From Candidatus Bathyarchaeia archaeon (GTDB taxonomy: Archaea > Thermoproteota > Bathyarchaeia > Bathyarchaeales > Bathycorpusculaceae), in assembly GCA_049515895.1 (NCBI GenBank), contig JBEKTQ010000028.1, positions 1 to 34,185 on the forward strand: a stretch of DNA of 34,185 bases. Reading direction: 5' to 3'. Positions 8,472 to 24,852 of the stretch are shown here, one piece after another. A program made the position numbers and the translations under genes. Within the stretch, counting starts at the first letter, position 1; each line of letters starts with the position of its first letter. The notes beneath the pieces are model-generated. The model saw only the letters and a program-made list of their open reading frames with translations. It was not told where the DNA came from and ran no database searches.

Positions 8472-9362
8472 TTATCCTATTCCAAGTTTCTTAGCTAGCT
8501 TTAAACGAACTACCCAGATGTATGCTTGGCCCATCAGTTTTTTCTTGAGGTTCTTTTTGGGATAGACAGCTCTGAATTGGTTAAGGGGCTCACCTTTAGG
8601 AATGAAATCCACGGATCCTAAGCCTTCTCTGTTTGCGAGCTTGAGATACTTTATTTTTCTAGGGTTTAGTCCCGCGATTTTTGCTGATGCTGCATCTATG
8701 GCGACAGGGTCTTTGCTTGCCATAACTAGCCCCAGTTTGCGTGGTTGGATTCCTGAAACGATGTTGCCATCTATGATACAGAGGTCAAACTTCATTGCTT
8801 TGTTGAGTGAAACAATAGCGTTTCCAAGTTGTGGATGATACTTGGATTTTTGCGGATAGGGATTGCAACCGTAGATATTTTTAAGTGAGCAGGTCAATTC
8901 GATTCCTTTCATTGTGTATTTTATTTTTGGCAGGTTAATTCTCAAATCTGCGTTCTTAATTATTTGAGGAACCTGAAAATTGTGTGATTTTCCATCACAT
9001 GTTACTGTAGCCTCTTCACTCTTTTCTTCTGAAAGGTTAACAAGCCTAACGCCTGAATCTTTGAAGAGTTTTTCATACCCCAAAAACTTGAAGGCGTATT
9101 TACATTTCATTGCTGACGCGTCAGATTCCACCAGTGCTATGTCGGAGACCGAGGTTTTCTCGCGCAAAATGTCAACTAAAGCTGCGACGAATTTTGGATC
9201 AGTGGTCTGCCCTGTGGAGTAATCCCAGTAATAACACATGTTGGGCTTTATGACGACTTCGCCAATTTTTCTGTCAAATGAATACCCCAGCAAATTCAGT
9301 GAATCTTCAATTGCTTTCTTGAAATTGGATTTTTCGATTTTAACTAGGCTGACCACGCTCAT
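8472..9362 (-). CDS. DUF362 domain protein
   Basis: VVIKPN, TTDP, INLPKIK, SLKNIYG, IIDG, DPVAID motifs; GGTGA RBS. Confidence 0.8.
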   Translation of the reverse strand: MSVVSLVKIEKSNFKKAIEDSLNLLGYSFDRKIGEVVIKPNMCYYWDYSTGQTTDPKFVAALVDILREKTSVSDIALVESDASAMKCKYAFKFLGYEKLFKDSGVRLVNLSEEKSEEATVTCDGKSHNFQVPQIIKNADLRINLPKIKYTMKGIELTCSLKNIYGCNPYPQKSKYHPQLGNAIVSLNKAMKFDLCIIDGNIVSGIQPRKLGLVMASKDPVAIDAASAKIAGLNPRKIKYLKLANREGLGSVDFIPKGEPLNQFRAVYPKKNLKKKLMGQAYIWVVRLKLAKKLGIG

Positions 9363-9476: not shown

Positions 9477-10496
9477 TTAGGCGTCTGGATCCTTGTTTCT
9501 CTTGATTCGATCATAAATGTGTTCGATAAGGCTATATTTTGAAATTGATTTCCTAAAAATGTAAGCAGGATCTAGGTCTCCGTTCCATTCTCTTTTCCAT
9601 CTCCATATACCCACATCGTGCAAACCCTTCGCATCAGGCCGCACATCACCCATATGATACTTTAAAAAGCCTCGTTTACATCCCCACTCCATAATTTTCC
9701 AATGAAGGAGGTCATTCGGTCTGGCTTCAAGAGCCATATTAAGATAGCCCCATCCCAACGCGTAGATTGTCTTAGCATGGATTGTCGTAAAGACACTCGA
9801 TACGTTGTTCCCTTTCCATCTGGCGAAGAATAGCCTTGAAGAATCTTTCTGGCTTCGTGACTTCCAGATCGTTTGAAACCAGGCGAGTGATGTGGGGACA
9901 AAATTGTGTCTATTCGCAATATCAAGAAACAGACGGTAGAATTCTTCAATATCCTCAAAACTACTGGTTTCTATGATTTCGACTCCTTTGTCGAGTGCTT
10001 TTTTGATATTCCTTCTCTTATTCCCATAAATACGGCTCCATAGGTCCTCTGCTCCTTTGCCTAAGTCTACAGTGTAAGCAGTATTTGTTCCAACGTATTT
10101 GTAACCCATGTTCCCGAACAAATCGGTGTATCCCCATTTGTAAGGCCACAGTATTTTGATCCGCAAGACGCGATTCTTGACCCCAAGCTTCTCAAAAGCA
10201 GGGATAATAGATTTCAATACACCGGGTTTATCCTTGCTCGTCATACTCAGTATCGGGCCTTCTTGGATATTCATGACCGTGCCAAATCCGAGATACTTTG
10301 AGAATCTACCTTGGGCTATACCCTCTGGCTCACCGTCCCGTGTGGCAATTAACCTGGGCGTTCTTGTGTGAGGATAAAGTTTTTTGATAGATTCGCCATA
10401 GTCAATCGTTTGCCACAAGTTCCCAAGTGAATTAATGGCTAGAAAAGAATCCCAGAGATCACGGTTAGGGTTTTCCAAAATCGAATATTCAGGCAT
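9477..10496 (-). CDS. FemAB/FemX-like GNAT-fold transferase (start reassigned to ATG 10496, MPEYSIL)
   Basis: WDSFL...GNLWQT, KRRNIKKALDKGVEI, PNDLLHWKIMEW, GIWRWKREWNG pattern of the FemABX/Acetyltransf_6 family. Confidence 0.8.
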   Translation of the reverse strand: MPEYSILENPNRDLWDSFLAINSLGNLWQTIDYGESIKKLYPHTRTPRLIATRDGEPEGIAQGRFSKYLGFGTVMNIQEGPILSMTSKDKPGVLKSIIPAFEKLGVKNRVLRIKILWPYKWGYTDLFGNMGYKYVGTNTAYTVDLGKGAEDLWSRIYGNKRRNIKKALDKGVEIIETSSFEDIEEFYRLFLDIANRHNFVPTSLAWFQTIWKSRSQKDSSRLFFARWKGNNVSSVFTTIHAKTIYALGWGYLNMALEARPNDLLHWKIMEWGCKRGFLKYHMGDVRPDAKGLHDVGIWRWKREWNGDLDPAYIFRKSISKYSLIEHIYDRIKRNKDPDA

Positions 10497-10736
10497 AAGT
10501 GTTCCATCATTATGACATAATCCACTTAGTGGAATCGTGCAAGTTTGGCATGCGTATATAGCGCGCTGCGCGCGACTAGTCACCGCGCGACATGGGGATG
10601 CCTAATACCCCAAAAGGCCTCCTCGAAGGGTAGTGCTGTTTGAACTTGCTTAAGGAGAGATTCCGTTAAGAGTTTTTCCCTACAACAAAAAGCAGAATTC
10701 ATTCAATCTCAATAATAAGTGGATGCGCAGGGTTCC

Positions 10737-11987
10737 TCATGTTCTCAAGTACCGCATTCGAATTCTTTTAATCCTTTTCCTACGCGTGTAATCTTTCGCC
10801 AAGTTTTTAGCTTCTTTCATTCGCCTCATTTTGGTTACCTCGGGTACGCGGTCTTTCAATTTCAATGACGGAAGGTTTGGTCTTTCACAATATATGTACC
10901 AATTAATCCTATCGAAATATGAGTGGCTGAGTAGATTCATTGTTTTTTTGAAGTCGTCTTCTGTTTCTCCTGGGAATCCCAGCATTATACTAGTGAGTAT
11001 CCGTATGGATGGGTAGTTTTTGTCAATGTCTTGTATGGTTTTTTCCCAGTCGTCGAGGTTAAACGTCTTGCCCATTTGTTTCAATATTCTCTCACTTCCT
11101 GACTGGATGTGGCTGCCGATTTCGAATATCCTTTTTGATAATAGTTTTTTATCTAGTTTGGGGTACAGGGCGATTAAGGAATTTGGGGAAACGTTATTTA
11201 TTGATATTTTGTATTTATTGTCTGGATATGTCTCGGCTATCTTGTTCAATAGGTCAGCCAGAGTTAAGCCTATGTCATGACCGTAGCAACCAAGATCTCT
11301 CCCGACGAATTCGAAATGCATATAATTTGCTGCCAATCCAAGTTCGAATTGCCTGAGAATTGTTTCGATGGGTACATCTCTTGACCATCTATAGGCAAGA
11401 CGATCACTACAGTAGGTGCAGCAGTTCCTGCATCCGCTCACTATTTTTATGTACCACTTCTTATGCGTGTAGCTGTAGAGCTTATCAACCGTGAAGTCGA
11501 TTATTCGGTGGGGCGAGGAAAAAGTCACCTGAGAGTTTACTTGAGGATACAGAGCGTTGGCAAATACGAGGTTAGTTCTTTCCCTCGGTTGATTGAAAAG
11601 GTCTGCGAAGAAGTCCCACTCTTCTGGACCGAGGAGAGGACCGTCATAAATTGCTTGGATGGCCCCAGGATTTATTTTTGGAAGACAGCCCCACACTATT
11701 AGTCTTGCTGAGGGTTTTTTCAGCCTGTTTATCCTTTCGATGATTTGCGCAGATTCAACATCATGCATGTCAAGGTGGCCGCATGCGTAGAACAGGATGA
11801 AATCGGCCTGTCTAACATTGTTTGTGCATTTGAATCCTGCGTCTTTCGAGAGAAGTTTTAATCTTTGCGTGTCTAGCAACCCTTCTTCACAAGCGTTGCT
11901 TATGAAATGCACTTTGAGGGCCTTGGGAGACTGCAATGTTGTTCCCTTAGTTAATCTCGTTTTCTCGATTTCAAAACATCTATTCAA
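10737..11987 (-). CDS. MiaB-like (methylthiotransferase-type) radical SAM protein without TRAM domain
   Basis: N-terminal UPF0004-type Cys triad (NAC, YAC, WGC), CxxxCxxC (GCRNCCTYC), IQSGSERILKQM, GFPGETEDDF; ends before any TRAM domain. Confidence 0.85.
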   Translation of the reverse strand: MNRCFEIEKTRLTKGTTLQSPKALKVHFISNACEEGLLDTQRLKLLSKDAGFKCTNNVRQADFILFYACGHLDMHDVESAQIIERINRLKKPSARLIVWGCLPKINPGAIQAIYDGPLLGPEEWDFFADLFNQPRERTNLVFANALYPQVNSQVTFSSPHRIIDFTVDKLYSYTHKKWYIKIVSGCRNCCTYCSDRLAYRWSRDVPIETILRQFELGLAANYMHFEFVGRDLGCYGHDIGLTLADLLNKIAETYPDNKYKISINNVSPNSLIALYPKLDKKLLSKRIFEIGSHIQSGSERILKQMGKTFNLDDWEKTIQDIDKNYPSIRILTSIMLGFPGETEDDFKKTMNLLSHSYFDRINWYIYCERPNLPSLKLKDRVPEVTKMRRMKEAKNLAKDYTRRKRIKRIRMRYLRT

Positions 11988-12524
11988 CTTTGTTTGAGCG
12001 CTGCCTTGTCCCTGTAATAGTTAAAGTTATCTTTTTGGACTATCCAAGTAATAGACTAATTCTTGAGAACATCGCAAGGGCGGTCTGAGCGTTTGCGTTC
12101 CAGGTTTTCCCAATTCATTGGTAAAGTGCGAACAATTCCGTAAGAGGTTAAACAGCTCAGATTTGCCCTCAAATCAAAAAATAAGAGTCATAACCATTTT
12201 ATTCCAATTTCGGGACAAGCCAGCGTGCGCTACAGGAGTACCTCAGCATTTATAATCTTACTAAGGCGCTGGTTGAGACAGCAATACCAAAGATAGGGAA
12301 CAATGAAGCCCGATCTCAGGATCGAGACGTGATATTTGTCGTAATGCATGAGGTTAAGTTAAAGTCGAATATCATAAATTGAGTGCGCGCGCTATACCTG
12401 CTTTAGAGTGAAGTCTGCAAAATCACAAATGGTCGGTGCGTTCAAAAACTTTACCTCTCCGTTTAAGAATCAAGTAATTTACCTAGAAACTGGTCCATTT
12501 TCATTTGCCTAGCGCGTTCGTTGA

Positions 12525-13637
12525 TTAGAAAGTCATTTGTTTGTAAATATTGGAGAGCTTTTTCACTTGTGTTTCCAAAGAAAAGTTATTGATTACTTGT
12601 TTTCTTCCTTCTCGCCCAAACTCAACTATGTCATCCTTATTCTCGAGCAAGCGCTGTATTGCGTTTGCTAGTTCCGCCGGTTCATTTCGAGACGTTAGGA
12701 TGCCAGTATTATAATTTCTTACGATTTCCGGAATTCCTCCTACAGGTGTTGCTACCACCGGAGTCTCACATGCAAGAGCCTCTAAGATAGTCATTGGAAA
12801 GGCTTCGTTGAACGAAGGTAAAACAAAGAGGGATGCTTTTTGATACCATTTTGCTATTTCAATATTGTCCATTGGGCCCAAATATGTTATCTTGTGTTTT
12901 CCTCTTCGATTTTCATCTTCGATGAGCCCCAAAATATAGGGCCGATAGTTGTTATCCATTGGACCAATAATAGCGAGTTGCACAGGTTTTTCTATATAGC
13001 GCAGAGCATTGACGAGCATATGTACTCCTTTGTTAGCCGTTACTCGCCCTACAAACAATAAGAGGTTGTCTATTTTTGATCCGTAAGGCTTGAATATGTT
13101 AACGTCTACGCCATTTGGCAGGTAGAAAATTCTGTTTCTGTTAATGCCTAAGGATACCATTTCATTTGTCATTTGACGTGATATGGAGATGCAGTAGTCT
13201 GGCAAGTGCTTCATTAACATGTGACTGATCCAATATCTTCTTAGAAATTGCACATCGAGACCGTGGCAGTGCAGAATTTTCGGCTTTCTTACTAATGATG
13301 AAAATAAGGGAAAACTGAATTCCAACTCGTGATAATGAAGTATGTCGTATTTGCTTAGGATGTTTGTAAATCTACTTGGAATAAGGTTTACTCTCATAGT
13401 AAGTCTGTGCGAGCGAAGAGCCCATAGAAGATTTAAGGCTGGAATCTTGTATACGGAAAAACCATCGTTGTTTTCTGTTTTTCCTTGCCAACTGGGAGTT
13501 CGCCATTGATCGGTGTTAAAGGTCAAAACATCGGTAGGAATATTGGCTTTGTTAAGGAGCATAGAAAGATTTCGAACAACGGTTTCTGTCCCGCCTTTTA
13601 CGGGGAAATAACAAGGTGTGATCATCAAGACGCGCAA
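12525..13637 (-). CDS. Glycosyltransferase family 4
   Basis: GGTE, PNGVD, FVGR...KG, E.FPMTILEALACETPVV motif. Confidence 0.9.
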   Translation of the reverse strand: MRVLMITPCYFPVKGGTETVVRNLSMLLNKANIPTDVLTFNTDQWRTPSWQGKTENNDGFSVYKIPALNLLWALRSHRLTMRVNLIPSRFTNILSKYDILHYHELEFSFPLFSSLVRKPKILHCHGLDVQFLRRYWISHMLMKHLPDYCISISRQMTNEMVSLGINRNRIFYLPNGVDVNIFKPYGSKIDNLLLFVGRVTANKGVHMLVNALRYIEKPVQLAIIGPMDNNYRPYILGLIEDENRRGKHKITYLGPMDNIEIAKWYQKASLFVLPSFNEAFPMTILEALACETPVVATPVGGIPEIVRNYNTGILTSRNEPAELANAIQRLLENKDDIVEFGREGRKQVINNFSLETQVKKLSNIYKQMTF

Positions 13638-13699
13638 TAAAATACCTTCGTTAAGCTTTTGTCTGTCTTTGGATAATTCTCCGCTGTGATTTGTGGTTA

Positions 13700-14638
13700 T
13701 TATTTAATTTGAAAAAACTCTTTGAAATGTGCGTAAATAAATCTGGGGGTGTATTTGAAGTATTTCTGGGGCCATATGATGCTTGTTTCATAACACAGTT
13801 GCACTTGGTCTTGAGTGATTGTCAGTTCTTTTGATGATGTCATCAAATTTGAGTTTATCTCCAGCAGTCCCGCACTCCGCAACTTCGAGATTTGCTTGAG
13901 AAGTAACTCGAATTTTTGGAACATTGCGCGTGTTTCTTTGGCAGACCTTAGAGGTACTCTCAGTAGTTTGGATGGGTTGCCCATGTAGTAAATAGAATCC
14001 CACATTTTCTGGTGCATGAATTGCGTGGGATGTAGATCAAGAACGGCAATTTTTCGCTTTAGAACCGCGGATAATAAACATTGATAATCATGCCGAGTGC
14101 CAAACCAATGCTGCATGAACGTGTCTGGATAGAAAGTTATTCCTTTATATCGAACTGGTTCAGATGTAGTGATGCTTGAAGAAAAGTCAAATTCTATGCC
14201 CAGATTAGATAATGCCTCCAAATTTGGAGGAGTCCAGCTCATCCCGGGGGCGCGGTAAGCTCTTATCCTTTTTGGTTTGAAAAGTTCCTGAAGTACGTAT
14301 ATTCCGCCTTCTCGTTCTGCTTTTCCTGTCAATGGGTTTATGTGTGCGGTTTCTCTCTTTAATGAGATTAGATAAGCTTGTTTGTAGCTTCGTAAATCGG
14401 CATACTCTGCAATTAATGGACGAACCGAATGTCCAGATGAGTGAAAGCCTATTTCATGATTTCTAAGTAGTTCCAAGATTTCTGGGAAATTGCCTAGTTT
14501 TTCAGCCATGTGTCCGCTAATAAAGAATATGCCTTTCAATTCGTATTTTTCCAGCATCTCCAAAAAAGTTCTGAGTGCACTTATTTCGTTTGCGCTCACG
14601 AAATCTTCAACATCAAATGTTAACATTAGCTTGTGCAT
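13700..14638 (-). CDS. Polysaccharide deacetylase family protein
   Basis: LTFDVED, HEIGFHSSGH, YRAPG, DLHP NodB-like motifs. Confidence 0.8.
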   Translation of the reverse strand: MHKLMLTFDVEDFVSANEISALRTFLEMLEKYELKGIFFISGHMAEKLGNFPEILELLRNHEIGFHSSGHSVRPLIAEYADLRSYKQAYLISLKRETAHINPLTGKAEREGGIYVLQELFKPKRIRAYRAPGMSWTPPNLEALSNLGIEFDFSSSITTSEPVRYKGITFYPDTFMQHWFGTRHDYQCLLSAVLKRKIAVLDLHPTQFMHQKMWDSIYYMGNPSKLLRVPLRSAKETRAMFQKFELLLKQISKLRSAGLLEINSNLMTSSKELTITQDQVQLCYETSIIWPQKYFKYTPRFIYAHFKEFFQIK

Positions 14639-14882
14639 GACATCTCACCTGTAAATGACTTAAAAATAAACTGTGCTTCTGCTTGTATCCTATTATTTGC
14701 CCCGTTTGTTCTGTTTCCTAAAGGAAGGCTAACAGTTTTTAAAGAAGTCAACTAATTCCCGATTTTTTGATCGGCCCTAGCGTGAATTGTTGTTTCGAAA
14801 TTGGTCAAAATTATCATATTCCATTTCTTGCTGTCTGTCCATTGCGCGCGCGACGCGTACTATTCGCTGATTTCTTTTTTGT

Positions 14883-16046
14883 TTAATGTGTTAGTGCGTC
14901 TAGATAAACGTTCAAAGTTCTCTTGGCAATAGCATCCCAAGAGATTTCTATTGCGTGTTTTCGGGCAGCATTTCCTAACTCTTTTCTTAAGTCAGGTTTG
15001 TTCATGAGTTTCAGAATAGCATCGGCTAGAGCCTCTGGGTCGTTTGGAGGAATTAGAATACTGCAGTCTTTTGAGTATTCAGTTGTTCCTCCAATGTTTG
15101 TCGCGATTACTGGTGTTGCGTTTGCCATTGCTCGCGTGAGAATACTGCTTCCATGAACAGGTTTTGTGTAGATAGCAAAAGTGAACATGCTCTCTTGCAT
15201 TTTTCTGTCAAATTCGTCTTCGCTCAGTCTTCCGCCCCAAACAATGCAATCCTTCACGCCCAATTCTTCAGCGCGAACATCCGCAGATTCATTTTCTGAT
15301 GCACTATAAATCCCGTAAAAATGAACCAGAATCTTTTTTCCTTTTTTCTTCAGTATTTTTAGTGCTTCGAAAAGGACGAATACACCTTTTCCTTCTACGG
15401 GAGCTCCGAAGAAAGTTATTTCATTCCTTTCTTTAGATAATAGGGTAGGAATCTTCGCTCCGTGAGGAATGACTGTTATTATAGAAGCGTCTGTCCCAAT
15501 TGAGATCAAGCTTTCTCTCATTTCTTTTGAGTGTACTGTTATCCTATCCGCTTTGTTGTATATTTGCTTATATATTACCTTGAGTACTTTTAGCCCCCAC
15601 ATAGTTTTGTCTATTTCATGGGCTGTTATGATTTTCTTATTGGAGGTGGGGATCAACATAATTGGGAACAATGGCAGCATCCCAAGTGAATAAACACTCT
15701 GCTGATAATGAATGACATCATATGATTTGCATTTAGCAAGATAACCGACTCCGCGTAGGAATTGTAAGGAAACTTGAAGAACCACATTAAGTACACGGCT
15801 TACTGGGTTCTTGGGGTATGTGTAAACATATGGTGGGAAGTTGACAAATTGACAGTTTTTGTCATGTAGCTTGTTCTCTACTCCGGTGAATCTTGAGCGC
15901 GCGCAAAAGCAATGGGAAGACACAACGCTCACAAGAACAAAGGGAAGTTTTTCAAGGCTATCTCGTAGATTGTAGGAATAATTAGTCACGGACAAATCCG
16001 TGTACCAACATGTTATGAGTCCGATTTTTATGGTCAAATTTCTCAA
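14883..16046 (-). CDS. Glycosyltransferase family 4
   Basis: ITAHE, IPHG, FFG...KG, AMANATPVIATNIGG, SWDAIA. Confidence 0.85.
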   Translation of the reverse strand: MRNLTIKIGLITCWYTDLSVTNYSYNLRDSLEKLPFVLVSVVSSHCFCARSRFTGVENKLHDKNCQFVNFPPYVYTYPKNPVSRVLNVVLQVSLQFLRGVGYLAKCKSYDVIHYQQSVYSLGMLPLFPIMLIPTSNKKIITAHEIDKTMWGLKVLKVIYKQIYNKADRITVHSKEMRESLISIGTDASIITVIPHGAKIPTLLSKERNEITFFGAPVEGKGVFVLFEALKILKKKGKKILVHFYGIYSASENESADVRAEELGVKDCIVWGGRLSEDEFDRKMQESMFTFAIYTKPVHGSSILTRAMANATPVIATNIGGTTEYSKDCSILIPPNDPEALADAILKLMNKPDLRKELGNAARKHAIEISWDAIAKRTLNVYLDALTH

Positions 16047-16112
16047 TCACCAACGTTTTAGATCCTATTAATAATCAGCACACGCGAAAGTTGACTTCAA
16101 CACATTGTGAAC

Positions 16113-16283
16113 CTACAATCGCGCGACGCGCGTAAAGCAGATTACGAAGCTTCTTCCTCTCTTTTGTCCAATTACCCATTCTCGATCTTCTTCATCTGTT
16201 AGAACAGACTTTGCATATTCCTCGAATTCTTCCTCAGAGCGCATCTCACTCATTCTGTTTATTCTCAGGTATGCTATCGGCAC
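16113..16283 (-). CDS. Small hypothetical protein, 56 aa (below the ORF-track cutoff)
   Basis: GTG start preceded by GAGGAG; MPIAYLRINRMSEMRSEEEFEEYAKSVLTDEEDREWVIGQKRGRSFVICFTRVARL*. Confidence 0.45.
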   Translation of the reverse strand: MPIAYLRINRMSEMRSEEEFEEYAKSVLTDEEDREWVIGQKRGRSFVICFTRVARL

Positions 16284-16365
16284 AAAATTCTCCTCTGTTT
16301 AGCGCGCACTAGTCTAATTCTCTCACATTTTCCCATCATTATGATCAAAACGTCCATTTGCTATG

Positions 16366-17373
16366 TTAAAGGTCAATCTCATCTATTTCTTGTATCAACT
16401 TTAGTGCGCGTCCGTTAAACAAGTTGTAATACCATCCGACGGTAAGCTCCAAACCCTCCTCCAAACTGACCCGCGGTTCGTATCCTATTAGAGTCTTGGC
16501 GAGGAGATTAGAACCGAAAAATCTTCGAACGTCCCCAGGGCGTCTATCCGTGTAAATTGCAGGCTTATTATAGTTCATTAGTTTGGCGATTCGCGACAGA
16601 AGATCTTTGATTGTAGTTTCTCCGCCGCTGGCAATGTTCAATACTTTGCCTCTCGTTGCTTTCACATCATATATCCTAATCGTAGCATCAACCAAATCTG
16701 ATACATACGTAAAATCTCTAGTCTGTAGTCCATCACCATGGATTATCGGTGGCTTCCGATGGATGATTCTTCTTATGTTTAGCGGTATTACAGCTGAATA
16801 AAATTTTTCGTTCTGTCTAGGACCGAAGGCGTTGAAGGGTCTTACTATCGATACATCAATCCCAAATGTTAGAATGTAAGACAGAACAAGGTGATCAGAC
16901 GCTATTTTGCTTGCGCCATAAGGCGTGGTTGGATTCAAGGGGTGTTCCTCAGTCATAGGCACATCAATGGCGTCTCCATATGCTTCAGAGGAGGAATAGT
17001 GAATGAGAGTTCTGTAATACCCCTTTCTCGCTAGCTCGCATAAAACTGAGGTGAGTTTCACATTTGTGTCATAAGCCAACTTCGGCTTACTTAGACACTC
17101 GGGCAATGGAACAATAGCCAGGTTGAAGACGACATCAACACTTTCCTTTTCTAGGATGGACTCCATCCGACTCATTCTAGTTGCGTTCTGCCTGTATACT
17201 TTCAGCTCAGGGTAATTCTGTTTTGCCAAAACCAAATTTCTCTCCTTACCAAGAGAAAAATCGTCGACAACAACAAGATTATCCGGTTTTTCCTTTATTA
17301 TTCGATCTACCAAATGGCTACCAATAAAACCAGCGCCGCCAGTTACCAGGACGGATTTGTTTTTCAAGCTCAT
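16366..17373 (-). CDS. NAD-dependent nucleotide-sugar epimerase/dehydratase (extended SDR)
   Basis: TGGAGFIGSH, SSSEAYG, YGASK, RPFNAFGP, GDGLQTRDFTYV. Confidence 0.92.
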   Translation of the reverse strand: MSLKNKSVLVTGGAGFIGSHLVDRIIKEKPDNLVVVDDFSLGKERNLVLAKQNYPELKVYRQNATRMSRMESILEKESVDVVFNLAIVPLPECLSKPKLAYDTNVKLTSVLCELARKGYYRTLIHYSSSEAYGDAIDVPMTEEHPLNPTTPYGASKIASDHLVLSYILTFGIDVSIVRPFNAFGPRQNEKFYSAVIPLNIRRIIHRKPPIIHGDGLQTRDFTYVSDLVDATIRIYDVKATRGKVLNIASGGETTIKDLLSRIAKLMNYNKPAIYTDRRPGDVRRFFGSNLLAKTLIGYEPRVSLEEGLELTVGWYYNLFNGRALKLIQEIDEIDL

Positions 17374-17493
17374 ATATGATCACCGGAGTAATGGTCACTT
17401 TTTGTTTACATCAGCCAAAGAAATAGGAATCCCCTTTTTGGGCGACTCGACGCGCGCGTGGCTGTTCCGAAATTTGGTCAAAAATGGTTTTTA

Positions 17494-17868
17494 TTAGGCG
17501 ACTTTAGGTATCTGCGGACAATTTCGCGAATTGCATCCGGTTTTGGTCTCTTTGCAAAAGCCACCTTTCTCAAACCTGCGCAGATGCTTTAGGCGGGAGA
17601 AAGGAAGATGGACAAGCTCAATTGAAGAGTCTAAGAGTGCGGCAGAAACCTGCTTCTTAGCTTTAGGCGGGACGTCATAAACATACTTTGGCCTCCCAAG
17701 ACCTGGAGAAACTATTTTTTCCCGCGCTAATACACCTTCGCTTAACAATTTCTTAATATGCAGTTTTAGAGTGTTGTGAGAAAACCCCACCTCATCAAGG
17801 AGATCAGTGAAAGGTTTTGGCTTCCCAATCTTCAAAACAGAGAGAGTTCGCTCATCGATGATATCCAT
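17494..17868 (-). CDS. ArsR-like winged-helix protein with Cys-rich C-terminus
   Basis: FTDLLDEVGFSHNTLKLHIKKLLSEG...GRPKYVY wHTH; C-terminal CKETKTGCNSRNCP. Confidence 0.8.
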   Translation of the reverse strand: MDIIDERTLSVLKIGKPKPFTDLLDEVGFSHNTLKLHIKKLLSEGVLAREKIVSPGLGRPKYVYDVPPKAKKQVSAALLDSSIELVHLPFSRLKHLRRFEKGGFCKETKTGCNSRNCPQIPKVA

Positions 17869-17890
17869 GATTAAACCATGTCAAAACGGA

Positions 17891-17905
17891 CTTAAAACCA
17901 TTTTT
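17891..17905 (-). promoter_or_regulatory. Putative BRE/TATA promoter inside the right inverted repeat
   Basis: Minus strand AAAAATGG-TTTTAAG ending 23 nt before ATG 17868, the usual spacing for a leaderless archaeal transcript. Confidence 0.45.
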
Positions 17906-17936
17906 AGCCAATTTTAGGAACAAACATGCGCGCTAC

Positions 17937-19040
17937 TTAGCGTATAATTTCCTTAAGACCTGATATCAAATGATCCGATATTTCCTCGCTTGTTATTGGA
18001 TATCTGTGCCAGTCTATCCATATGGACTCGTCGCGCAATTTTTCAGCTGTTGGACACTTTCTGGCGAAACGTTGGTAAAAAGGTAATTCATAAAGAAGCC
18101 CAGAATATCCTCCTCCTATGGTTCTTCTAGGTATTCCATTGTCAAGTCCTTTCATTTTAAGGGCTTCTAAGAAACTGTCTCTAGACATACCAGCTTTCTC
18201 ATCCAGAAAACGACACCCAATAATGTAGCAGGCGGACTTCATGTAGCTAGGTGGTTGTGGAAGTTCTAAACAATCAGGAAGAACAGAAGCTATGAACTTA
18301 GCATTTCGAATCTGCCAGTCAACTTGGAACTGTAAGCTATCCATTTGGAGAAGCCCAACAGCTGCTTGGAGGTCTGACATACGGAAGTTAAAACACAGAT
18401 AATTTGCCCCATTTTTTTCTCCATGATTTCGGATGTTTCTACATTTCTCAGCAATCCTATCATCGTTAGTAACTATCATCCCCCCCTCACCGGTGCTTAT
18501 CATCTTGGTCATATCTCCTCCAAGACTGAAACACCCAACAACACCGACGCGTCCAACCTTTTGTCCTTTGTACTCTGCTCCTAACGCCTGGGAACAATCT
18601 TCAATTATAGGAACACCACTGGGAAACTCGTCTAATTCACACGGCATACCCAGCTGATGAGCAGCAACAATACCTTTAAGTGGGTTTTTCCGAAGGCTTT
18701 TTTGCAGCTCTTTTGGATTAATGTTACCCTGTTTGTCTACATCATTGAACATGGGAACGGCTCCAGCGAGTAGTATTGGAGCCACAGATCCGATGTGCGT
18801 GTAGGGTGAGACCGCCACTAGGTCGCCTTGCCCTATCCCGCAAGCACGCAAAGCAACGTAGATGCTGGCAGAACCGTTTGAAACAGCTATCGCGTGTTTG
18901 GCTCCAATATACTCTGCGAACTTACGCTCAAATTCCAGCAAATATGGACCGCCATTAGGTGATCTCCACCAGCCACACAAGCGTCCACTCTTTAACAATT
19001 CTATAACGCAGGACCAATCGATGTTGCCAAGTATTGCCAT
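17937..19040 (-). CDS. DegT/DnrJ/EryC1/StrS PLP-dependent sugar aminotransferase
   Basis: FERKFAEYIG, VSNGS, IEDCSQALG, FS...KMISTGEGGM (PLP Lys), NFRMSDLQAAVG. Confidence 0.9.
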   Translation of the reverse strand: MAILGNIDWSCVIELLKSGRLCGWWRSPNGGPYLLEFERKFAEYIGAKHAIAVSNGSASIYVALRACGIGQGDLVAVSPYTHIGSVAPILLAGAVPMFNDVDKQGNINPKELQKSLRKNPLKGIVAAHQLGMPCELDEFPSGVPIIEDCSQALGAEYKGQKVGRVGVVGCFSLGGDMTKMISTGEGGMIVTNDDRIAEKCRNIRNHGEKNGANYLCFNFRMSDLQAAVGLLQMDSLQFQVDWQIRNAKFIASVLPDCLELPQPPSYMKSACYIIGCRFLDEKAGMSRDSFLEALKMKGLDNGIPRRTIGGGYSGLLYELPFYQRFARKCPTAEKLRDESIWIDWHRYPITSEEISDHLISGLKEIIR

Positions 19041-19491
19041 AACCCCACCTTATTACTTTCTCGTAAATATTGAGTACATAAATAACTCATTTATGAAAAA
19101 TTGGTTCATATTAAGAGTTCATGCGAAACGCTGATAGAAGATACTCGGGGCGGATCTAAGTGAAAAAACGAACAAACAAGCGCGCGGTCGATCTTTGCGA
19201 TAGCCCCGAGTTTTTATAGAGCTTTATTGTGAATCCCTGAGTTTGTTCATACATCTTGTTTCTCTGAATTCTTTCTCTGGTTCAAATATTCCAGCTATAT
19301 GCTGTATTAACTATGTAACAACGAAATATGACACTAGAACCACACTATATTGATCGAGAATACACTTTCCAATTAGGGCACTCTCCAACTCAATTTGCCA
19401 GGTCCATAATTTCGGATAAAGCCTTCAGAAAGCAGTTATTCATGTAGCCCCCACTTTGAATGTCTGATGTTTTACATTCAAGTGCAAAGTT

Positions 19492-20295
19492 CTATGTGTC
19501 GCATTTTTCTTTCGAGTGAATCAGGCGAATTGGTATTTCCCTCAATTTATACAAGAGAATTAGCAAGCTCTCAAGAAGGTCATCCAGTTTTGTCTTTATG
19601 TGGGTTTTTCCTTCCCAGTGACAGGGATGTATCAAGAGCTGAACTCGCCGTGGGTGATTGTTCAGCAGAATAAATAAACTTTTAATTGACCAGAGTCTTC
19701 GCGAGTCATGAACGTAAACATCTCTGAGACGAGGATCATCGGCATTTGCGTAGCCGCGTATTTGTAAGAATGAGTTGGGATTACCTCTAAACGCATGACA
19801 ACTGATGGCCGTGATCTTTCTGCCCAAGAGATTTTCGAGTATGTCTATCTCCATTTTCAGGGCTTCCGCATCGTCCCGCCCGTAACACTCATATTGATAA
19901 GTATCATAGTGAAGTCCGATCTCATGACCGAGCGTACATATCTTTTTCATAATACACACGTTTCTCCCTTCCAAAAGGTTGTAACCCTCACCCGACAGCC
20001 ACACGAAGTAGGTTGATTTTACTCCCATTTCATGTTCAATTTCAGCCATTTTCAAGGCCGGTTCTAGAGAAACATCTATATCGTGGCGAAGAACAAGGTA
20101 GGGAAGGTCTTCTTTTGGTATTTCACCAAACGGAACAACCTTGTAGATTTGACCCAAATATTTCACCAGCTTCACGTAAGTCTTTGGATTGAAACTCGCA
20201 AGTTCCTTGACGCTCGGTTTCTCCACAGAAGCCGCCTCCTGGTTTTTGTTTTTGAAAGTTAAGGTCTGAGCCATTGGTGCATCAATAGCGCTCAA
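19492..20295 (-). CDS. Polysaccharide deacetylase-like protein (WbmS-like); start uncertain
   Basis: LRHDIDVS...AEIE...KSTYFV, GHEIGLHY, LLIHPCHW. Confidence 0.75.
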   Translation of the reverse strand: MSAIDAPMAQTLTFKNKNQEAASVEKPSVKELASFNPKTYVKLVKYLGQIYKVVPFGEIPKEDLPYLVLRHDIDVSLEPALKMAEIEHEMGVKSTYFVWLSGEGYNLLEGRNVCIMKKICTLGHEIGLHYDTYQYECYGRDDAEALKMEIDILENLLGRKITAISCHAFRGNPNSFLQIRGYANADDPRLRDVYVHDSRRLWSIKSLFILLNNHPRRVQLLIHPCHWEGKTHIKTKLDDLLESLLILLYKLREIPIRLIHSKEKCDT

Positions 20296-20548
20296 AGAAG
20301 ATGAGTCTCATGTGAGTACAAGGCGGTCTTCTAGCGAGCGCTAAGCCATATTCTGCCTTCTTTGCAGCTTTCATGGTAAATATATCGACGTGAGTTCCAC
20401 AATTAATCACCGTGTGTTTCTCCTCGATCTTTCGAAACAGGTCATAGATTTCTGGAGAACAGATACGATCTATTGTTGGCCGGCTGTCCCAATAATGAGT
20501 TGCCACACAATCGTCAGGGAGCTTCGAATATGCCAACACTTTGTTCAA
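20282..20548 (-). pseudogene. Degenerate N-terminal remnant of an FkbM-like methyltransferase
   Basis: EIYDLFRKIEEKHTVINCGTHVDIFTMKAAKK resembles the FkbM motif I region (VID.GAH.G.FT..AAK) with key residues lost; only 88 aa. Confidence 0.5.
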
Positions 20549-20705
20549 ACATCGTGTTCGAAAGCAAATGCCCTAGTCAAGGCTACATAATTTCCAGAAA
20601 GTTATAGGGTTGAATCGCAAAATCCGAACGGCATCCTGAAGCATTCCCCGAAGCAAGAAAGAAATCGCCTCGGGCTCAAGCGAGCGAACATCTGCTATGC
20701 CCTTC

Positions 20706-21956
20706 TTAATATTCAACCTGTGCGGGGACTCGGTTCGGACAAAAGATACCACGCGCCATTCTGATTGGAGAATTCAATACATACGCCTGCATGTACTTCT
20801 GTGATATCTTCCTGCTTCTTGATTCCTTGGTCTTCTCAGACACTTGGCTTGCCATGCGAGAAGCGTAGACCCCTGGTCTTGCAGAGAATTTGAAGATGAC
20901 CATGGAATCAAGAAACAAGGGATAATCAAAAAGTTTCAGAGTCGCTGCAAAATCCTCCTCTGTTTCCGTCGGAAAACCAACCAAGAAATGTGTCGAGAGT
21001 CGAATATCCGGGAATCCGCTATTGATTCTTATCATACTTTCTCTCCATTCTTCAGCTGTGTAGGGTCTGCCCATAAGTCTAAGGATCCTATTACTTCCAG
21101 ACTGCACTGGACAATTCAACGCTGATATTCTTCCTGAAGCAAATATCTTCTCCAAATCGGGAAGCATTTTCTTCAAATAGGATGGAAATACTTGATTAAG
21201 AGCGATTTTGAAACTTCTATTGCTATCAATACGGACCATTTTCTCAAGAAGATCGGAAAGTGTGACACCTATGTCTTTACCATAAGCCCCAAGATCGGTG
21301 GCAATTAAAGAAATCGTGTTGTAGCCTTGTTGCAACCCCAGTTCCAAATCAGAAATTATCTTGTTAATGGGTCGGCTTTTGAGTTTACCATACACTAATC
21401 GCTCGCTGCAGTATGTACAATGCCCTGTACAACCTGCAGCGATCCTAATCCAAAACTTGGTGTTTTGTCTGGATCGCGCCCAAAGTCTGTCCCAGTTTTG
21501 CTTTAGGAGAATGAAAGCGCCACCTAGGCAGTCGGCCTTGTCAAATTTGTTCAGCCCAGAAGGTTGGCTTGAAAGAAGCAAATTCTGGGCGCCAGCGATA
21601 TCCAAACTGTCGAAAGGAACCCTAGTTGCTTCCAAGATTTCTTTCAAGGAGCTATTGTCCGTTGATACTACGAAAGGACCATTGTAAATCCCTAACAGCG
21701 ACTCGGGGTTTATCTTTGGCAAGCATCCACAAACGATGAGCTTTGTGGCAGGCTTCATTTTCTCTTGTACTCTCCTTATTGCCAATAGGGAGTCTTTTTC
21801 GCTTCGTTCCGTCAATCCACAAGCCCAGAAAACTACCGTTTCTGCTTGTGATGGACCATTCACGATTGTTAGTCCGTTCTCTCTGAGAAAACGCGCGATA
21901 TTTGTAGAGCTAAGTTGAGCTTCTATGCATCCATTGGTGCCTACGTATACTCTCAC
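20706..21956 (-). CDS. Second MiaB-like radical SAM protein without TRAM domain
   Basis: Cys triad (NGC, WAC, CGC), GCTGHCTYC, VQSGSNRILRLMGR, GFPTETEEDF, FSARPG; GGAGG RBS. Confidence 0.85.
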   Translation of the reverse strand: MRVYVGTNGCIEAQLSSTNIARFLRENGLTIVNGPSQAETVVFWACGLTERSEKDSLLAIRRVQEKMKPATKLIVCGCLPKINPESLLGIYNGPFVVSTDNSSLKEILEATRVPFDSLDIAGAQNLLLSSQPSGLNKFDKADCLGGAFILLKQNWDRLWARSRQNTKFWIRIAAGCTGHCTYCSERLVYGKLKSRPINKIISDLELGLQQGYNTISLIATDLGAYGKDIGVTLSDLLEKMVRIDSNRSFKIALNQVFPSYLKKMLPDLEKIFASGRISALNCPVQSGSNRILRLMGRPYTAEEWRESMIRINSGFPDIRLSTHFLVGFPTETEEDFAATLKLFDYPLFLDSMVIFKFSARPGVYASRMASQVSEKTKESRSRKISQKYMQAYVLNSPIRMARGIFCPNRVPAQVEY

Positions 21957-22182: not shown

Positions 22183-23337
22183 TTATGTACAAGGGTTTTT
22201 TGACGTGTCTAACATCTTCTTGTACATCTCGATTAATCTTGCTGCAACACTCTTCAAACTGTAGCCTTCTTCAATTCTTCTTGCGGCAGATCTACCGTAT
22301 TTTTCTCTAGTTTCTTTGCTGGTCAATATCAACTCGAGAGCTTCTGCCAGCTTGGCAGGATTATTTGGAGGGACTATTAACCCGTTTTCGTTATGTATAA
22401 TAACGTGATTTTGGGTTCCGATCACAGGTGTGCCACAGGCTAAGGCTTCCAAAGCGGAGAGTCCTTGCCCGCTAACACCGATCAAATCTGGTCTTACTAG
22501 TACTGTAGCCTTTTGATACCAATTCACTAATTCAGAATGATTAATACTTCCCAAGTATTTGACATTATGGAAACCATTCGCATTTATCTTTAGTCGCATT
22601 CTGTCAATTTGTTTGAAGTATACAGGGTCGTTCACCGGCCCAATTAATACTACTTGAGCTTTCGAATTCAGATATTGCAGAGACTCTAACAATATATGCA
22701 GTCCCTTGAGGGGGTATATTCTACCCACAAATAGAATTAGGTCATTGAGCTTTTGTTCTCTGTCAGGATGAAAGATTTCAGTATCAACTCCCTCTGGCAA
22801 TATTGCGATCTTATTTTTCGGTATGCCCATTTCCTCAAGGACAGCCTTTTCTTCTGGGGAAAAGACTATGTACAAATTTGCAAGGGTTCTGAAAATTCTT
22901 GCAAGAATTTTTCCCATCATGGCATGTCTATTCCCCAAGCCTGGTATTGCCACGCAGTGCATGATTTTTGGCTTTTGAATGGAGCGTGAGAGGATAGGCA
23001 TACTTAGGTCTGCTTCGCCCAGAAAGTGAATTATATCATAATCGTGGAACTTCTTCTTGAAACCAGGCTTTGGCAGTACATTTATTCTTAGAGGGGGGTG
23101 AAGTGGACTTACTTGAAGAAACGGGAAAGGATTTAATGCTGGCATTTTAAAAACTTGGTGATTGATACCAGTTTCGACTTTTTCGCTGTAGATTGGCTTC
23201 CATTTCTTTTCCATATTGAAAGCCATAATGTCAGTGTGAATTCCCGCCTCATTGAGTTCGGTTGACAGAGCTCGAGTTAGTATTTCTGATCCGCCAACTA
23301 TGGGGAAATAGGATGGTGTGACTATTAGTACTTTCAT
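22183..23337 (-). CDS. Glycosyltransferase family 4 (start reassigned to ATG 23337, MKVLIV)
   Basis: GGSE, GVDT, FVGRI..KG, LEALACGTPVI; clearly paralogous to 12525..13637. Confidence 0.88.
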   Translation of the reverse strand: MKVLIVTPSYFPIVGGSEILTRALSTELNEAGIHTDIMAFNMEKKWKPIYSEKVETGINHQVFKMPALNPFPFLQVSPLHPPLRINVLPKPGFKKKFHDYDIIHFLGEADLSMPILSRSIQKPKIMHCVAIPGLGNRHAMMGKILARIFRTLANLYIVFSPEEKAVLEEMGIPKNKIAILPEGVDTEIFHPDREQKLNDLILFVGRIYPLKGLHILLESLQYLNSKAQVVLIGPVNDPVYFKQIDRMRLKINANGFHNVKYLGSINHSELVNWYQKATVLVRPDLIGVSGQGLSALEALACGTPVIGTQNHVIIHNENGLIVPPNNPAKLAEALELILTSKETREKYGRSAARRIEEGYSLKSVAARLIEMYKKMLDTSKNPCT

Positions 23338-23619
23338 ATAGACACCTGCTCGCGCTTCCTTTGAAAGAAACCCTACGCGCCGAGTTCCTTGCACTCTAAC
23401 AATTTAGTCAAACTCAGAGAGGCACGCGCTTTGTTTATCCAGAGGGATGGGAAGGGGGATTCATAAAGATAATATATACTGTCCTTCCCAATTATTCTAA
23501 GTCATAGCGAGCACCAATAGTATACATATATACCAAGTTTTCCGCACCATCCGAAAATCTAGCAGTCATAGAACCGAGAATCTACTTCTTCTTTCGCGTG
23601 CGCCTATTAAACTTACTTC

Positions 23620-24750: not shown

Positions 24751-24852
24751 TGGATGTTCACCTATTTCTAATAGAAAATACTTGTCAGTATTTGCAGAAC
24801 AGGAGAACCATTTAATCAATCTAATTATCTTTGAACCTATGGGCTTGGAACA

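Follow-up and report, generated by a model that had tools for sequence, protein, structure and literature searches.

TRAM-less methylthiotransferase-like radical SAM proteins encoded in a probable surface-sugar gene cluster of an archaeon

Two paralogous genes of a Candidatus Bathyarchaeia archaeon appear to specify radical SAM enzymes from a distinct methylthiotransferase (MTTase)-like clade that lacks TRAM, and we tentatively propose that they serve a glycan pathway, most likely as thiolating or methylthiolating enzymes. Both lie on the minus strand of the 34,185-nucleotide stretch of contig JBEKTQ010000028.1 that was analysed (hereafter the window), gene A (P0001) at 10737..11987 and gene B (P0002) at 20706..21956. 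If the proposal is true, A and B may modify sugars with sulfur groups instead of acting on RNA.

Domain content and gene cluster

The products of A and B are paralogs sharing 32% identity, and the groups to which they belong were named family A and family B. Each frame is open across 416 codons; the start of P0001 is probably at 11936 rather than 11987, since the public gene model for this protein (P0122) is 399 amino acids long. Pfam domains UPF0004 (E=3.1e-10 in P0001 and 2.3e-14 in P0002) and Radical_SAM (E=2e-14 and 1.2e-17) were found in both, while no match to TRAM or TRAM_2 was found in either, even at E≤1. The N-terminal site for an auxiliary [4Fe-4S] cluster is formed by C33, C69 and C101 in P0001 and by C10, C46 and C78 in P0002, and the CxxxCxxC motif by C186, C190 and C193 and by C176, C180 and C183, respectively. 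Together with the structural models these results bear out the initial annotation, which described two 416-residue reading frames with a three-cysteine N-terminal domain and a CxxxCxxC core, lacking TRAM.

Each of the six cluster cysteines is kept in at least 97% of 37 aligned family A and B proteins, the three N-terminal ones in 97–100% of these and in all 38 canonical MTTases. Other motifs of the canonical enzymes are retained as well, namely GS287-288, L292, M295, GFPxE327-331, D335, R360 and R380 (P0002 numbering). A second set of residues (W76, G47, L79, S184, G207-L208, G296 and W304) is invariant in families A and B and unlike the canonical proteins. The proteins were also compared with cobalamin-dependent (class B) radical SAM methylases: neither matched the B12-binding domain PF02310 at E≤1, and they scored only 43–64 bits with TIGR04013 and TIGR04014 (cut-offs 251–360).

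The genes around A and B, all on the minus strand, make up a probable archaeal surface-sugar gene cluster. Downstream of A lie a FemAB/Acetyltransf_6-like (amino)acyltransferase gene, directly adjacent (9477..10583; Acetyltransf_6 5.9e-14, FemAB 4.1e-13, with weak NCBIfam FemAB and FemX matches under their cut-offs), a DUF362 gene (8472..9362; 1.1e-36) and a GFO/IDH/MocA oxidoreductase gene (7462..8457) identified by Pfam, the product of which resembles UDP-GlcNAc 3-dehydrogenase or inositol dehydrogenase by NCBIfam matches under cut-offs. Between A and B are genes for two GT4 glycosyltransferases (12525..13637 and 14883..16046; Glycos_transf_1 3.2e-35 and 8e-23), a polysaccharide deacetylase-like protein (13700..14638; Polysacc_deac_1 E=9.8e-7), an NDP-sugar 4,6-dehydratase/epimerase of the SDR type (16366..17373; Epimerase 6.9e-53, the top NCBIfam matches being dTDP-glucose 4,6-dehydratase and LegB, both under cut-offs), a LegC/PseC-like DegT/DnrJ/EryC1 sugar aminotransferase (17937..19040; Pfam 2.6e-68, NCBIfam LegC and PseC under cut-offs) and, directly downstream of B, a 267-residue protein of no recognised family (19492..20295). 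A third GT4 gene (22183..23394; Glycos_transf_1 1.9e-27) stands directly upstream of B, followed by those for a second Acetyltransf_6/FemAB-like acyltransferase (23620..24819; Acetyltransf_6 6.8e-32), an FkbM-family methyltransferase (24957..25799; Methyltransf_21 4.2e-5, and TIGR01444, cut-off 37.7, passed at 75.2 bits), a DUF2206 membrane protein (27087..29210; 7.4e-50) and a GT2 glycosyltransferase (32397..33299; Glycos_transf_2 1.1e-23). In total, the window holds four GT4 genes and one GT2 gene, the DegT aminotransferase, the SDR dehydratase, two GFO oxidoreductases, two FemAB-like transferases, the deacetylase and methyltransferases; a DUF1616 gene was also recognised by Pfam. The glycosyltransferase and DUF362 genes that the initial annotation placed near A and B were thus found by Pfam, as were the two FemAB/Acetyltransf_6 genes; of its "deacetylases", the protein at 13700..14638 was recognised, whereas that at 19492..20295 matched nothing in Pfam or NCBIfam.

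The TRAM-less branch and its genomic context

The match to the broad MiaB/RimO model TIGR00089 covers profile positions 1–369 in A and extends up to 361 in B, out of 429, from which it follows that the TRAM part is absent. We built a TRAM HMM from 35 canonical C-termini; a search with it across the window, cut into 594 six-frame segments, found nothing (best E=0.63), where the initial annotation had allowed for a separately encoded TRAM partner, and gave no match to the aligned A and B proteins. No TRAM Pfam domain occurs among the 120 homologs listed for P0001 or the 120 listed for P0002. Given these homologs, and with no TRAM-like segment in the window, the sequences indicate that the absence of TRAM in the two proteins is not an artefact of truncation. 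In the predicted structures (pLDDT 86.7 for P0001 and 83.7 for P0002) both proteins finish in a single long basic helix in place of the TRAM barrel, at residues 366–398 and 374–405, respectively. In the model of B, the stretch that links UPF0004 to the radical SAM domain (residues 132–147) is of poor quality. The best PDB folds for P0002 were MtaB, MiaB and RimO at TM 0.69–0.72, the next class scoring 0.58; MgmA matched at TM 0.58 against about 0.7 for the MTTases.

A careful-mode maximum likelihood tree (IQ-TREE) of 77 proteins, 37 from families A and B and 38 from MiaB, MtaB, e-MtaB and RimO, placed A and B in one group (support 100/99), with all 38 canonical proteins beyond a branch that also has support 100/99. 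The four canonical families were each monophyletic (bootstrap 99–100), P0001 fell inside the family-A clade (100/95) and P0002 in the family-B clade; A and B therefore lie outside the canonical tRNA MTTase clades, as the initial annotation would have it. Profile scores agree: P0001 and P0002 are under every NCBIfam cut-off, including that of TIGR00089 (190.9 bits for A and 229.2 for B; cut-off 251), and their top equivalog scores are 149.9 and 196 bits, the four equivalog cut-offs being 314.7–357. An equivalog cut-off was passed by 76 of the 80 MTTase proteins at the loci described below. Identity to canonical MTTases is about 26–29%, a level at which radical SAM chemistry can change.

Among the best 150 representatives at 50% identity, at least 146 are TRAM-less relatives; for 146 the A/B models outscore the canonical ones, none matches the TRAM HMM, and 48 can be assigned clearly to A or B by a margin of 80 bits or more. 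The ESM Atlas gave a similar picture, with 24 of 30 feature hits being clusters with Radical_SAM and UPF0004 only. Such relatives are annotated publicly as "radical SAM protein" or "MiaB/RimO family", the named relatives of A and B come from Bathyarchaeia and Jordarchaeaceae, which with the DUF1616 and DUF2206 genes makes an archaeal origin of the window likely, and our literature searches on this TRAM-less radiation found no paper. By these sequence comparisons A and B are paralogous subfamilies of a large, uncharacterised TRAM-less MTTase branch. TRAM loss by itself is no pointer to sugars, because TRAM-less relatives also occur in non-glycan contexts: two Bacteroidales proteins (L004 and L007), on a separate long branch of the tree, are encoded in radical SAM/ABC-transporter clusters, and another (P0367) is fused to a peptide prenyltransferase.

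Most family members lie on metagenome contigs; gene neighbourhoods were compared at 80 MTTase loci fetched from a reference-genome scan listing at least 599 stretches. Only two of these, L001 and L002, carry family B, and both are from Bathyarchaeota MAGs. Each holds GT2, GT4, two DegT and PS_pyruv_trans genes and DUF2206 or DUF1616; a Polysacc_synt flippase gene is present in L002 and not in L001, and the DUF2206 gene of L002 (4356–6617; 4.2e-41) is of the same family as that in the window. A DegT gene lies within two genes of B at all three loci, the window included. Glycosyltransferases together with DegT sugar aminotransferases were found at both fetched family-B loci versus none of the 78 other MTTase loci, so that the association of homologs with glycan loci expected by the initial annotation held for family B. 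In a tblastn control, 14 glycan proteins of the window, queries which favour archaeal relatives, gave three or more hits only at L001 and L002 (five each) and none at 72 of the 80 loci. The three loci are all from related archaea and thus not independent, and the glycan link of family B is partly supported. L001 and L002 carry B with no A within 10 kb, so the two families are not generally paired as they are in the window. A homolog of A and one of B (P0128 and P0118) are nonetheless each listed with a longest contig of 33,907 bp. For family A, the context is known from the window and from two fusion proteins (P0219 and P0135), in which about 85 N-terminal residues from an NDP-sugar epimerase/dehydratase are joined to a family-A body.

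Proposed function and alternative explanations

The initial annotation regarded A and B as TRAM-less MTTase-like enzymes of a glycan pathway, a view that stands as regards their architecture, separate clade, the glycan context of family B and the lack of TRAM in the window. On the sequence evidence, it is somewhat probable that A and B work on a non-RNA substrate of this pathway. They would act there rather than on tRNA or protein S12, and the putative substrate would be either an NDP-amino/deoxy-sugar, or a lipid-linked glycan, or else an acyl or aminoacyl group put on by the neighbouring FemAB-like transferases. Homology and gene neighbourhood suggest that the reaction may be methylthiolation or sulfur insertion on a sugar; that it would be methylthiolation proper is a possibility we hold with some doubt. 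By homology, a first SAM would methylate sulfide on the auxiliary cluster, and cleavage of a second at the radical SAM cluster would give a 5'-deoxyadenosyl radical. This would take hydrogen from an unactivated sp3 carbon in the substrate, and the substrate radical would then capture the methylthio group, so that the mass would rise by about 46 Da net.

Perhaps the substrate is a sugar or glycan and the MTTase scaffold has been repurposed for another reaction, such as C-methylation, dehydration, deamination, epimerisation or the formation of a C-C bond. In that case the N-terminal cluster would serve to bind substrate or to transfer electrons. We regard this as unlikely, though it deserves consideration. 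It is consistent with the long branch that separates A and B from all characterised MTTases, with their scores under the family cut-off and with their own set of invariant residues. AprD4, a sugar-modifying radical SAM enzyme of related two-domain build, is among the fold matches (rank 13, TM 0.55), and in L001 a second radical SAM gene directly follows B, its top NCBIfam match being DesII (81 bits; cut-off 450), which makes non-thiolation radical sugar chemistry plausible in these clusters. The auxiliary-cluster cysteines and MTTase motifs, however, are kept almost without exception, and MTTases clearly lead the fold matches. According to a 2023 paper (PMC10702137), methylthiolation is the only reaction known for this fold family, and no MTTase substrates other than tRNA and S12 are known.

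According to the same paper (PMC10702137), all three MTTase domains touch tRNA, and in chimeras substrate choice is set by the MTTase or radical SAM domain rather than by TRAM. A and B might accordingly still modify RNA or protein, through other recognition surfaces or a TRAM protein encoded elsewhere, their glycan location being incidental. Four fetched proteins (L012, L023, L059 and L070) have the scores of true e-MtaB or MiaB but stop before TRAM. The C-terminal helix of A is strongly basic in sequence, and a basic helix at this position could still bind nucleic acid. This explanation is nevertheless improbable: one glycan cluster holds two paralogs, family B is in glycan clusters at three of three loci versus 0 of 78 for other MTTases, A and B form their own clade, and no frame of the window encodes TRAM. 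In addition, a different Bathyarchaeia MAG (L020) carries a TRAM-bearing e-MtaB, so this lineage probably has an enzyme for the tRNA role already.

That A and B are decayed or truncated, functionless pseudogenes of a canonical MTTase, as the missing last domain and scores under curated cut-offs might suggest, is extremely improbable and, in view of the sequence conservation, as good as refuted, given the full-length open frames, the retention of every catalytic cysteine, hundreds of homologs of the same length and domain content, the confident models and the absence of a downstream TRAM remnant in any frame.

Comparison with known methylthiotransferases

The usual archaeal MTTase is the e-MtaB/CDKAL1-type tRNA ms2t6A methylthiotransferase (TIGR01578). 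A and B resemble it in the three-cysteine UPF0004 domain, the CxxxCxxC radical SAM core and the overall fold, and it is among their best specific NCBIfam models, being first for B (196 bits) and second for A (139.9, behind MtaB at 149.9). Unlike A and B, e-MtaB has a C-terminal TRAM region; both proteins score far under its cut-off of 314.7 bits and lie outside its clade (100/97), and the fetched e-MtaB loci are not in glycan clusters.

MiaB is the tRNA ms2i6A synthase, in which TRAM and other domains engage the tRNA. Its structures (PDB 7mjv–7mjz) give fold matches at TM 0.69–0.72 and 22–23% identity, with the same two-cluster architecture. Unlike MiaB, A and B have no TRAM and a longer linker joining the radical SAM domain to UPF0004, and they score 126–159 bits against its model (cut-off 355). 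They share the TRAM-less state with the public radiation, inside which contexts vary, as in the Bacteroidales radical SAM/ABC loci.

RimO is the beta-methylthiotransferase of ribosomal protein S12 Asp88. Of all solved structures, it gives the strongest sequence match (PDB 4jc0; E=3.2e-32, aligned core residues 168–397), with fold matches at TM 0.70–0.72. Unlike A and B, it carries a TRAM-type domain at the C-terminus, and its substrate is a protein; A and B score 134–167 bits against its model (cut-off 357) and fall outside its clade. RimO methylthiolates an sp3 carbon in a substrate other than RNA and is in this respect the closest precedent for modification of an amino-acyl or sugar carbon.

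Gene content of the window

The 34,185-bp window (G+C about 0.42) carries, between about 25,800 and about 4,100, a nearly unbroken series of minus-strand genes. Assignments from Pfam and NCBIfam scans were obtained for 26 ORFs. On the minus strand, from the upper end, there are genes for an FkbM methyltransferase (24957–25799), an Acetyltransf_6/FemAB-like transferase (23620–24819), a GT4 (22183–23394), the second methylthiotransferase (MTTase)-like protein (20706–21956; UPF0004 and Radical_SAM matches; P0002, family B), a 267-aa product with no family match (19492–20295), a DegT aminotransferase (17937–19040), a 124-aa HTH-like protein with a weak HTH_20 match (17494–17868), an SDR 4,6-dehydratase/epimerase (16366–17373), a GT4 (14883–16046), a polysaccharide deacetylase-like protein (13700–14638), a further GT4 (12525–13637), the first MTTase-like protein (10737–11987; the same two matches; P0001, family A), a FemAB-like transferase (9477–10583), a DUF362 protein (8472–9362) and a GFO/IDH/MocA oxidoreductase (7462–8457). 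Below these are a DUF1616-like protein (6230–6853) and a class I methyltransferase (4106–4825). The outer part of the window specifies a DUF2206 protein (27087–29210, minus strand), a second GFO oxidoreductase, one GT2 and a GH5 cellulase-like protein (ORF 1433–3424). These genes probably constitute a surface-glycan or polysaccharide cluster with many amino- and deoxy-sugar enzymes. The public gene model of the first MTTase-like ORF (P0122) is 399 aa long, and its start is therefore probably at 11936.

Several other features deserve mention. The HTH-like ORF 17494–17868, which separates the sugar dehydratase gene from the aminotransferase gene, has on either side 40-nt inverted repeats (17452–17491 and 17894–17933, 83% complementary), and together they may be a small inserted element or regulator cassette. 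A 12/24-nt tandem repeat at 3104–3247 encodes the Pro/Thr-rich linker of the GH5 cellulase-like protein, and an imperfect inverted copy of it lies at 97–153, within the ORF at the left window end. A DDE transposase ORF (33443–34183; DDE_Tnp_1, DUF772) adjoins the glycan cluster and leaves the window at the right end. Translation of the plus-strand ORF 29634–31052 gives a 472-aa product with a hydrophobic N-terminus, presumably a secreted or surface protein, for which Pfam and NCBIfam had no match. Scans of the window returned no tRNA genes and no Rfam matches; a sigma-70 promoter scan gave 25 sites against 23.3 expected, the organism being probably archaeal.

Domain structure and phylogeny of the MTTase-like proteins

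Pfam recognizes UPF0004 and Radical_SAM in both 416-codon ORFs, and no further notable domain. The two proteins show 32% identity across 383 residues. The initial annotation had described both as retaining the N-terminal three-cysteine domain and the radical SAM core while lacking TRAM, and each part of this description is borne out. Together with the two Pfam matches, the three N-terminal and the three radical SAM cysteines are each present in 97–100% of the 37 family rows of our 77-row alignment, as the same six are in 38/38 rows of the canonical enzymes (MiaB, MtaB, e-MtaB and RimO). TRAM is absent according to the Pfam scan, to a broad MiaB/RimO model that covers both ORFs only to profile position 361–369 of 429, and to a TRAM profile derived from 35 of the 38 canonical C-termini, which had zero matches among the A/B rows. 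When the window was translated in six frames, none of the 594 segments matched this profile either (best E 0.63). Since it finds nothing in six frames, there is no frameshift in either ORF and no TRAM gene nearby, and the separately encoded TRAM partner that the initial annotation named as evidence against its reading is missing from the window.

The broad MiaB/RimO model gives 190.9 bits for A and 229.2 for B, both below its cut-off of 251, and the scores fall far under the NCBIfam equivalog cut-offs for MiaB, MtaB, e-MtaB and RimO. GS, L..M, GFPxE, D and two R positions are common to the A/B family and the canonical MTTases; the family's own invariant residues are (P0002 numbering) W76, G47, L79, S184, G207-L208, G296 and W304. 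Confident AlphaFold2 models (pLDDT 83.7 from 35 sequences for B, 86.7 from 32 for A) both end in a single long helix (B 374–405, A 366–398), the beta-barrel being absent. The best PDB matches of the B model are MtaB, MiaB and RimO (TM 0.69–0.72, 22–25% identity), followed by a cobalamin-dependent methylase (TM 0.58); a sequence comparison with solved structures ranked RimO 4jc0 first (E 3.2e-32). As far as can be told from sequence, A and B resemble MTTases in the way they work. Of five testable features of membership in the characterised family they miss three, having no TRAM domain, a score under the curated cut-off and a position outside the characterised clades.

An additional MTTase-like subfamily was reportedly named by Arragain et al. 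in 2010 (JBC). A genome scan in which at least 599 stretches matched provided 80 MTTase loci. At E<=1e-70, NCBIfam labelled 23 of them e-MtaB, 35 MiaB, 16 MtaB and 2 RimO, so that canonical MTTases occupy 76/80 and four (L001, L002, L004 and L007) are unlabelled; family B was represented among the 80 by L001 and L002 only. The canonical loci were used both as outgroups for the tree and as controls for gene neighbourhood. Our tree comprised 77 rows (38 canonical, the four unlabelled, 19 family-A and 14 family-B database proteins and the two window proteins); the other 38 canonical loci were left out for size. It was computed with IQ-TREE (LG+C20+F+G4) from 385 retained columns, the TRAM columns being gone, and is unrooted.

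The 37 rows of the A+B group were recovered with support of 100/99, the 38 canonical rows lying on the opposite side of that branch. Family A had 100/95, and the canonical clades 100/97 (e-MtaB), 100/100 (MiaB), 99/95 (MtaB) and 100/100 (RimO). A quick tree united family B with L001 and L002 (SH-aLRT 98). Short proteins from two Bacteroidales MAGs (L004 and L007) form a long sister branch to A+B. The tree shows that A and B are nested in no characterised family, and leaves the relative age of the branches undecided; the placement within canonical tRNA MTTases that would have overturned the initial annotation was thus not observed.

Four further loci, L012:9935–11101, L023:414–1484, L059:9962–11134 and L070:3436–4572, exceed the e-MtaB or MiaB cut-offs and end 7–23 residues beyond the radical SAM core, without TRAM. 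They nest within, or score as, ordinary e-MtaB or MiaB and are a different phenomenon from A/B; split genes or assembly errors may explain them, or they may be genuine TRAM-less canonical enzymes.

Database relatives and genomic context

At E<=1e-10 we found 2,129 relatives of P0002 among 8,000 scored candidates and 201 of P0001 among 4,307. For either protein, none of the 120 relatives among the matches listed has a TRAM Pfam domain. Those of family A share 41–79% identity with P0001 and those of family B 44–82% with P0002, the opposite family appearing in each list at 32–39%. The named relatives belong to Bathyarchaeia/Bathyarchaeota and Jordarchaeaceae. Where public labels are given, they read 'MiaB' ('tRNA A37 methylthiotransferase MiaB'), 'MtaB', 'CDKAL1' or 'MiaB/RimO family'; the names MiaB, MtaB and CDKAL1 are probably wrong for the TRAM-less branch.

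A 35-sequence A+B profile run against 1.84 billion 50%-identity representatives returned 7,387 at E<=1e-30, canonical MTTases included. The best 150 were scored with our own HMMs, built from small samples: 48 could be assigned clearly to A or B, exceeding the canonical models by 80 bits or more, 98 favoured the A/B models by a smaller margin, and in four, two of them multi-module proteins, the canonical models won. The TRAM profile at E<=0.01 matched none of these 150. This points to a large TRAM-less branch, of at least 146 clusters at 50% identity in the best 150. Among ESM Atlas feature matches, 24/30 were clusters with Radical_SAM and UPF0004 only. Tblastn of a plasmid collection with P0002 matched 56 records, every one below 60% identity, with no A/B member among the matches listed; the best 25 had 26–29% identity, and their annotation, where present, named rimO, miaB or mtaB.

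Eight loci contained short proteins, and Pfam was applied to 46 of their 113 ORFs, namely those of every neighbour in L001, L002 and L004 plus the inner region of L007, with L012, L023, L059 and L070 excluded. L001, on the 2.35-Mb chromosome OY970280.1 of a Bathyarchaeota MAG, has 17 neighbours including two GT2, four GT4-type and two DegT proteins, a polysaccharide pyruvyl transferase, a methyltransferase, another radical SAM gene and DUF1616. The 16 neighbours in L002, from a second Bathyarchaeota MAG, include four GT2, three GT4-type and two DegT proteins and DUF2206, together with one gene each for a pyruvyl transferase, a methyltransferase, a Polysacc_synt flippase and a radical SAM protein. 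In the window, as in L001 and L002, a DegT gene is found no more than two genes away from family B. For a control, all 80 loci were searched by tblastn (E<=1e-6) with 14 of the window's glycan proteins: L001 and L002 each gave five distinct matches, every other locus at most two and 72 none, a comparison biased towards archaeal relatives by the use of the window's own proteins as queries. Family B thus recurs in a glycan context at three loci. The association of homologs with glycan loci, whose lack would have counted against the initial annotation, stands for family B in these loci; it does not extend to the short MTTase-like proteins of L004 (4297–5583) and L007 (9962–11185), outside A/B, whose neighbours are radical SAM, B12-radical SAM, SPASM, UbiA and ABC-transporter genes, with no glycan genes.

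A family-A copy was sought within 10 kb in L001 and L002, and none was found. A hint for family A comes from P0128 (A) and P0118 (B), for each of which the longest contig is given as 33,907 bp. Immediately downstream of the family-B gene in L001 is a 482-aa radical SAM gene (11298–12746), the second radical enzyme of that cluster. It was rejected as a member of family A (BLASTP E 0.086); its top NCBIfam match, far sub-threshold (81 vs 450 bits), is to the sugar-deaminating radical SAM enzyme DesII.

Fused relatives were also inspected. P0219 (556 aa) and P0135 (479 aa) begin with the initial ~85 residues of an NDP-sugar epimerase/dehydratase, followed in frame by a full family-A body, which the family-A HMM scores at 605 bits. 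They look like the outcome of a deletion that fused two adjoining genes; the epimerase fragment being so short, we rejected a functional fusion and took the pair as evidence of adjacency. A search for longer forms yielded only P0367 (1002 aa), fused to a LynF/TruF/PatF-type peptide prenyltransferase and, at 28% identity, a distant relative and not an A/B member. P0268 (1245 aa; MurB_C and two MTTase-like modules) and P0353 (1019 aa; tandem modules) were set aside as context evidence, since the A/B models score them no better than the canonical ones. The TRAM-less radiation seems to have roles in several pathways unrelated to RNA.

Possible function of the A and B proteins

Methylthiotransferases are textbook modifiers of tRNA and the ribosome. 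The available text of a 2023 study gives tRNA and protein S12 as the only known MTTase substrates, with generally one MTTase per archaeal genome (PMC10702137), and TRAM-less forms go unmentioned in the available portions of PMC7545696 and PMC9016551. In our literature search, which did not reach subscription journals or supplements, no paper dealt with glycan-cluster MTTases that lack TRAM; earlier notice of the branch is possible.

From their gene context we infer that the A and B proteins serve the glycan pathway. Given this presumed role, and with RimO as the best precedent for a reaction at an sp3 carbon outside RNA, we propose that A and B methylthiolate either a carbon of a sugar or an N-linked acyl or amino-acyl group. 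A cluster-bound sulfide would be methylated in a SAM-dependent step, the 5'-deoxyadenosyl radical would abstract a hydrogen, and the methylthio group would then be captured. Two FemAB-like transferases and two MTTase-like paralogs per cluster would fit two rounds of decoration, and we claim no more than that fit.

That A and B carry out some other radical reaction, on a substrate of this same kind, is a serious possibility, if short of probable. A TRAM-independent MTTase acting on RNA or protein is improbable; against it stand the glycan neighbourhoods of family B. That the ORFs are pseudogenes, as a lost domain might suggest, can hardly be credited with both reading frames free of frameshifts and the cysteines conserved.

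Methylthiolation in the glycan pathway would make A/B the first radical SAM MTTases with a carbohydrate-pathway substrate, adding one or two methylthio groups to unactivated carbon, a reading that we offer tentatively and with low confidence. The target might be an amino/deoxy-sugar carbon, such as a 6-methyl group, or else an amino-acyl or acyl group attached by the FemAB-like enzymes. Two TRAM-less subfamilies in glycan gene clusters are a concrete candidate for carbohydrate C-H thiolation, open to enzymologists' tests, and suggest that uncultured archaea may carry on their surfaces a sulfur-containing modification not seen so far. Should methylthiolation in the glycan pathway prove true, enzymes that thiolate C-H bonds of small molecules and glycans would have a reservoir in the wider TRAM-less radiation. 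The product would be a thioether-bearing archaeal surface glycan, made by a route unrelated to that of mycobacterial methylthioxylose, which derives from methylthioadenosine and is, to our knowledge, the sole methylthio-sugar route.
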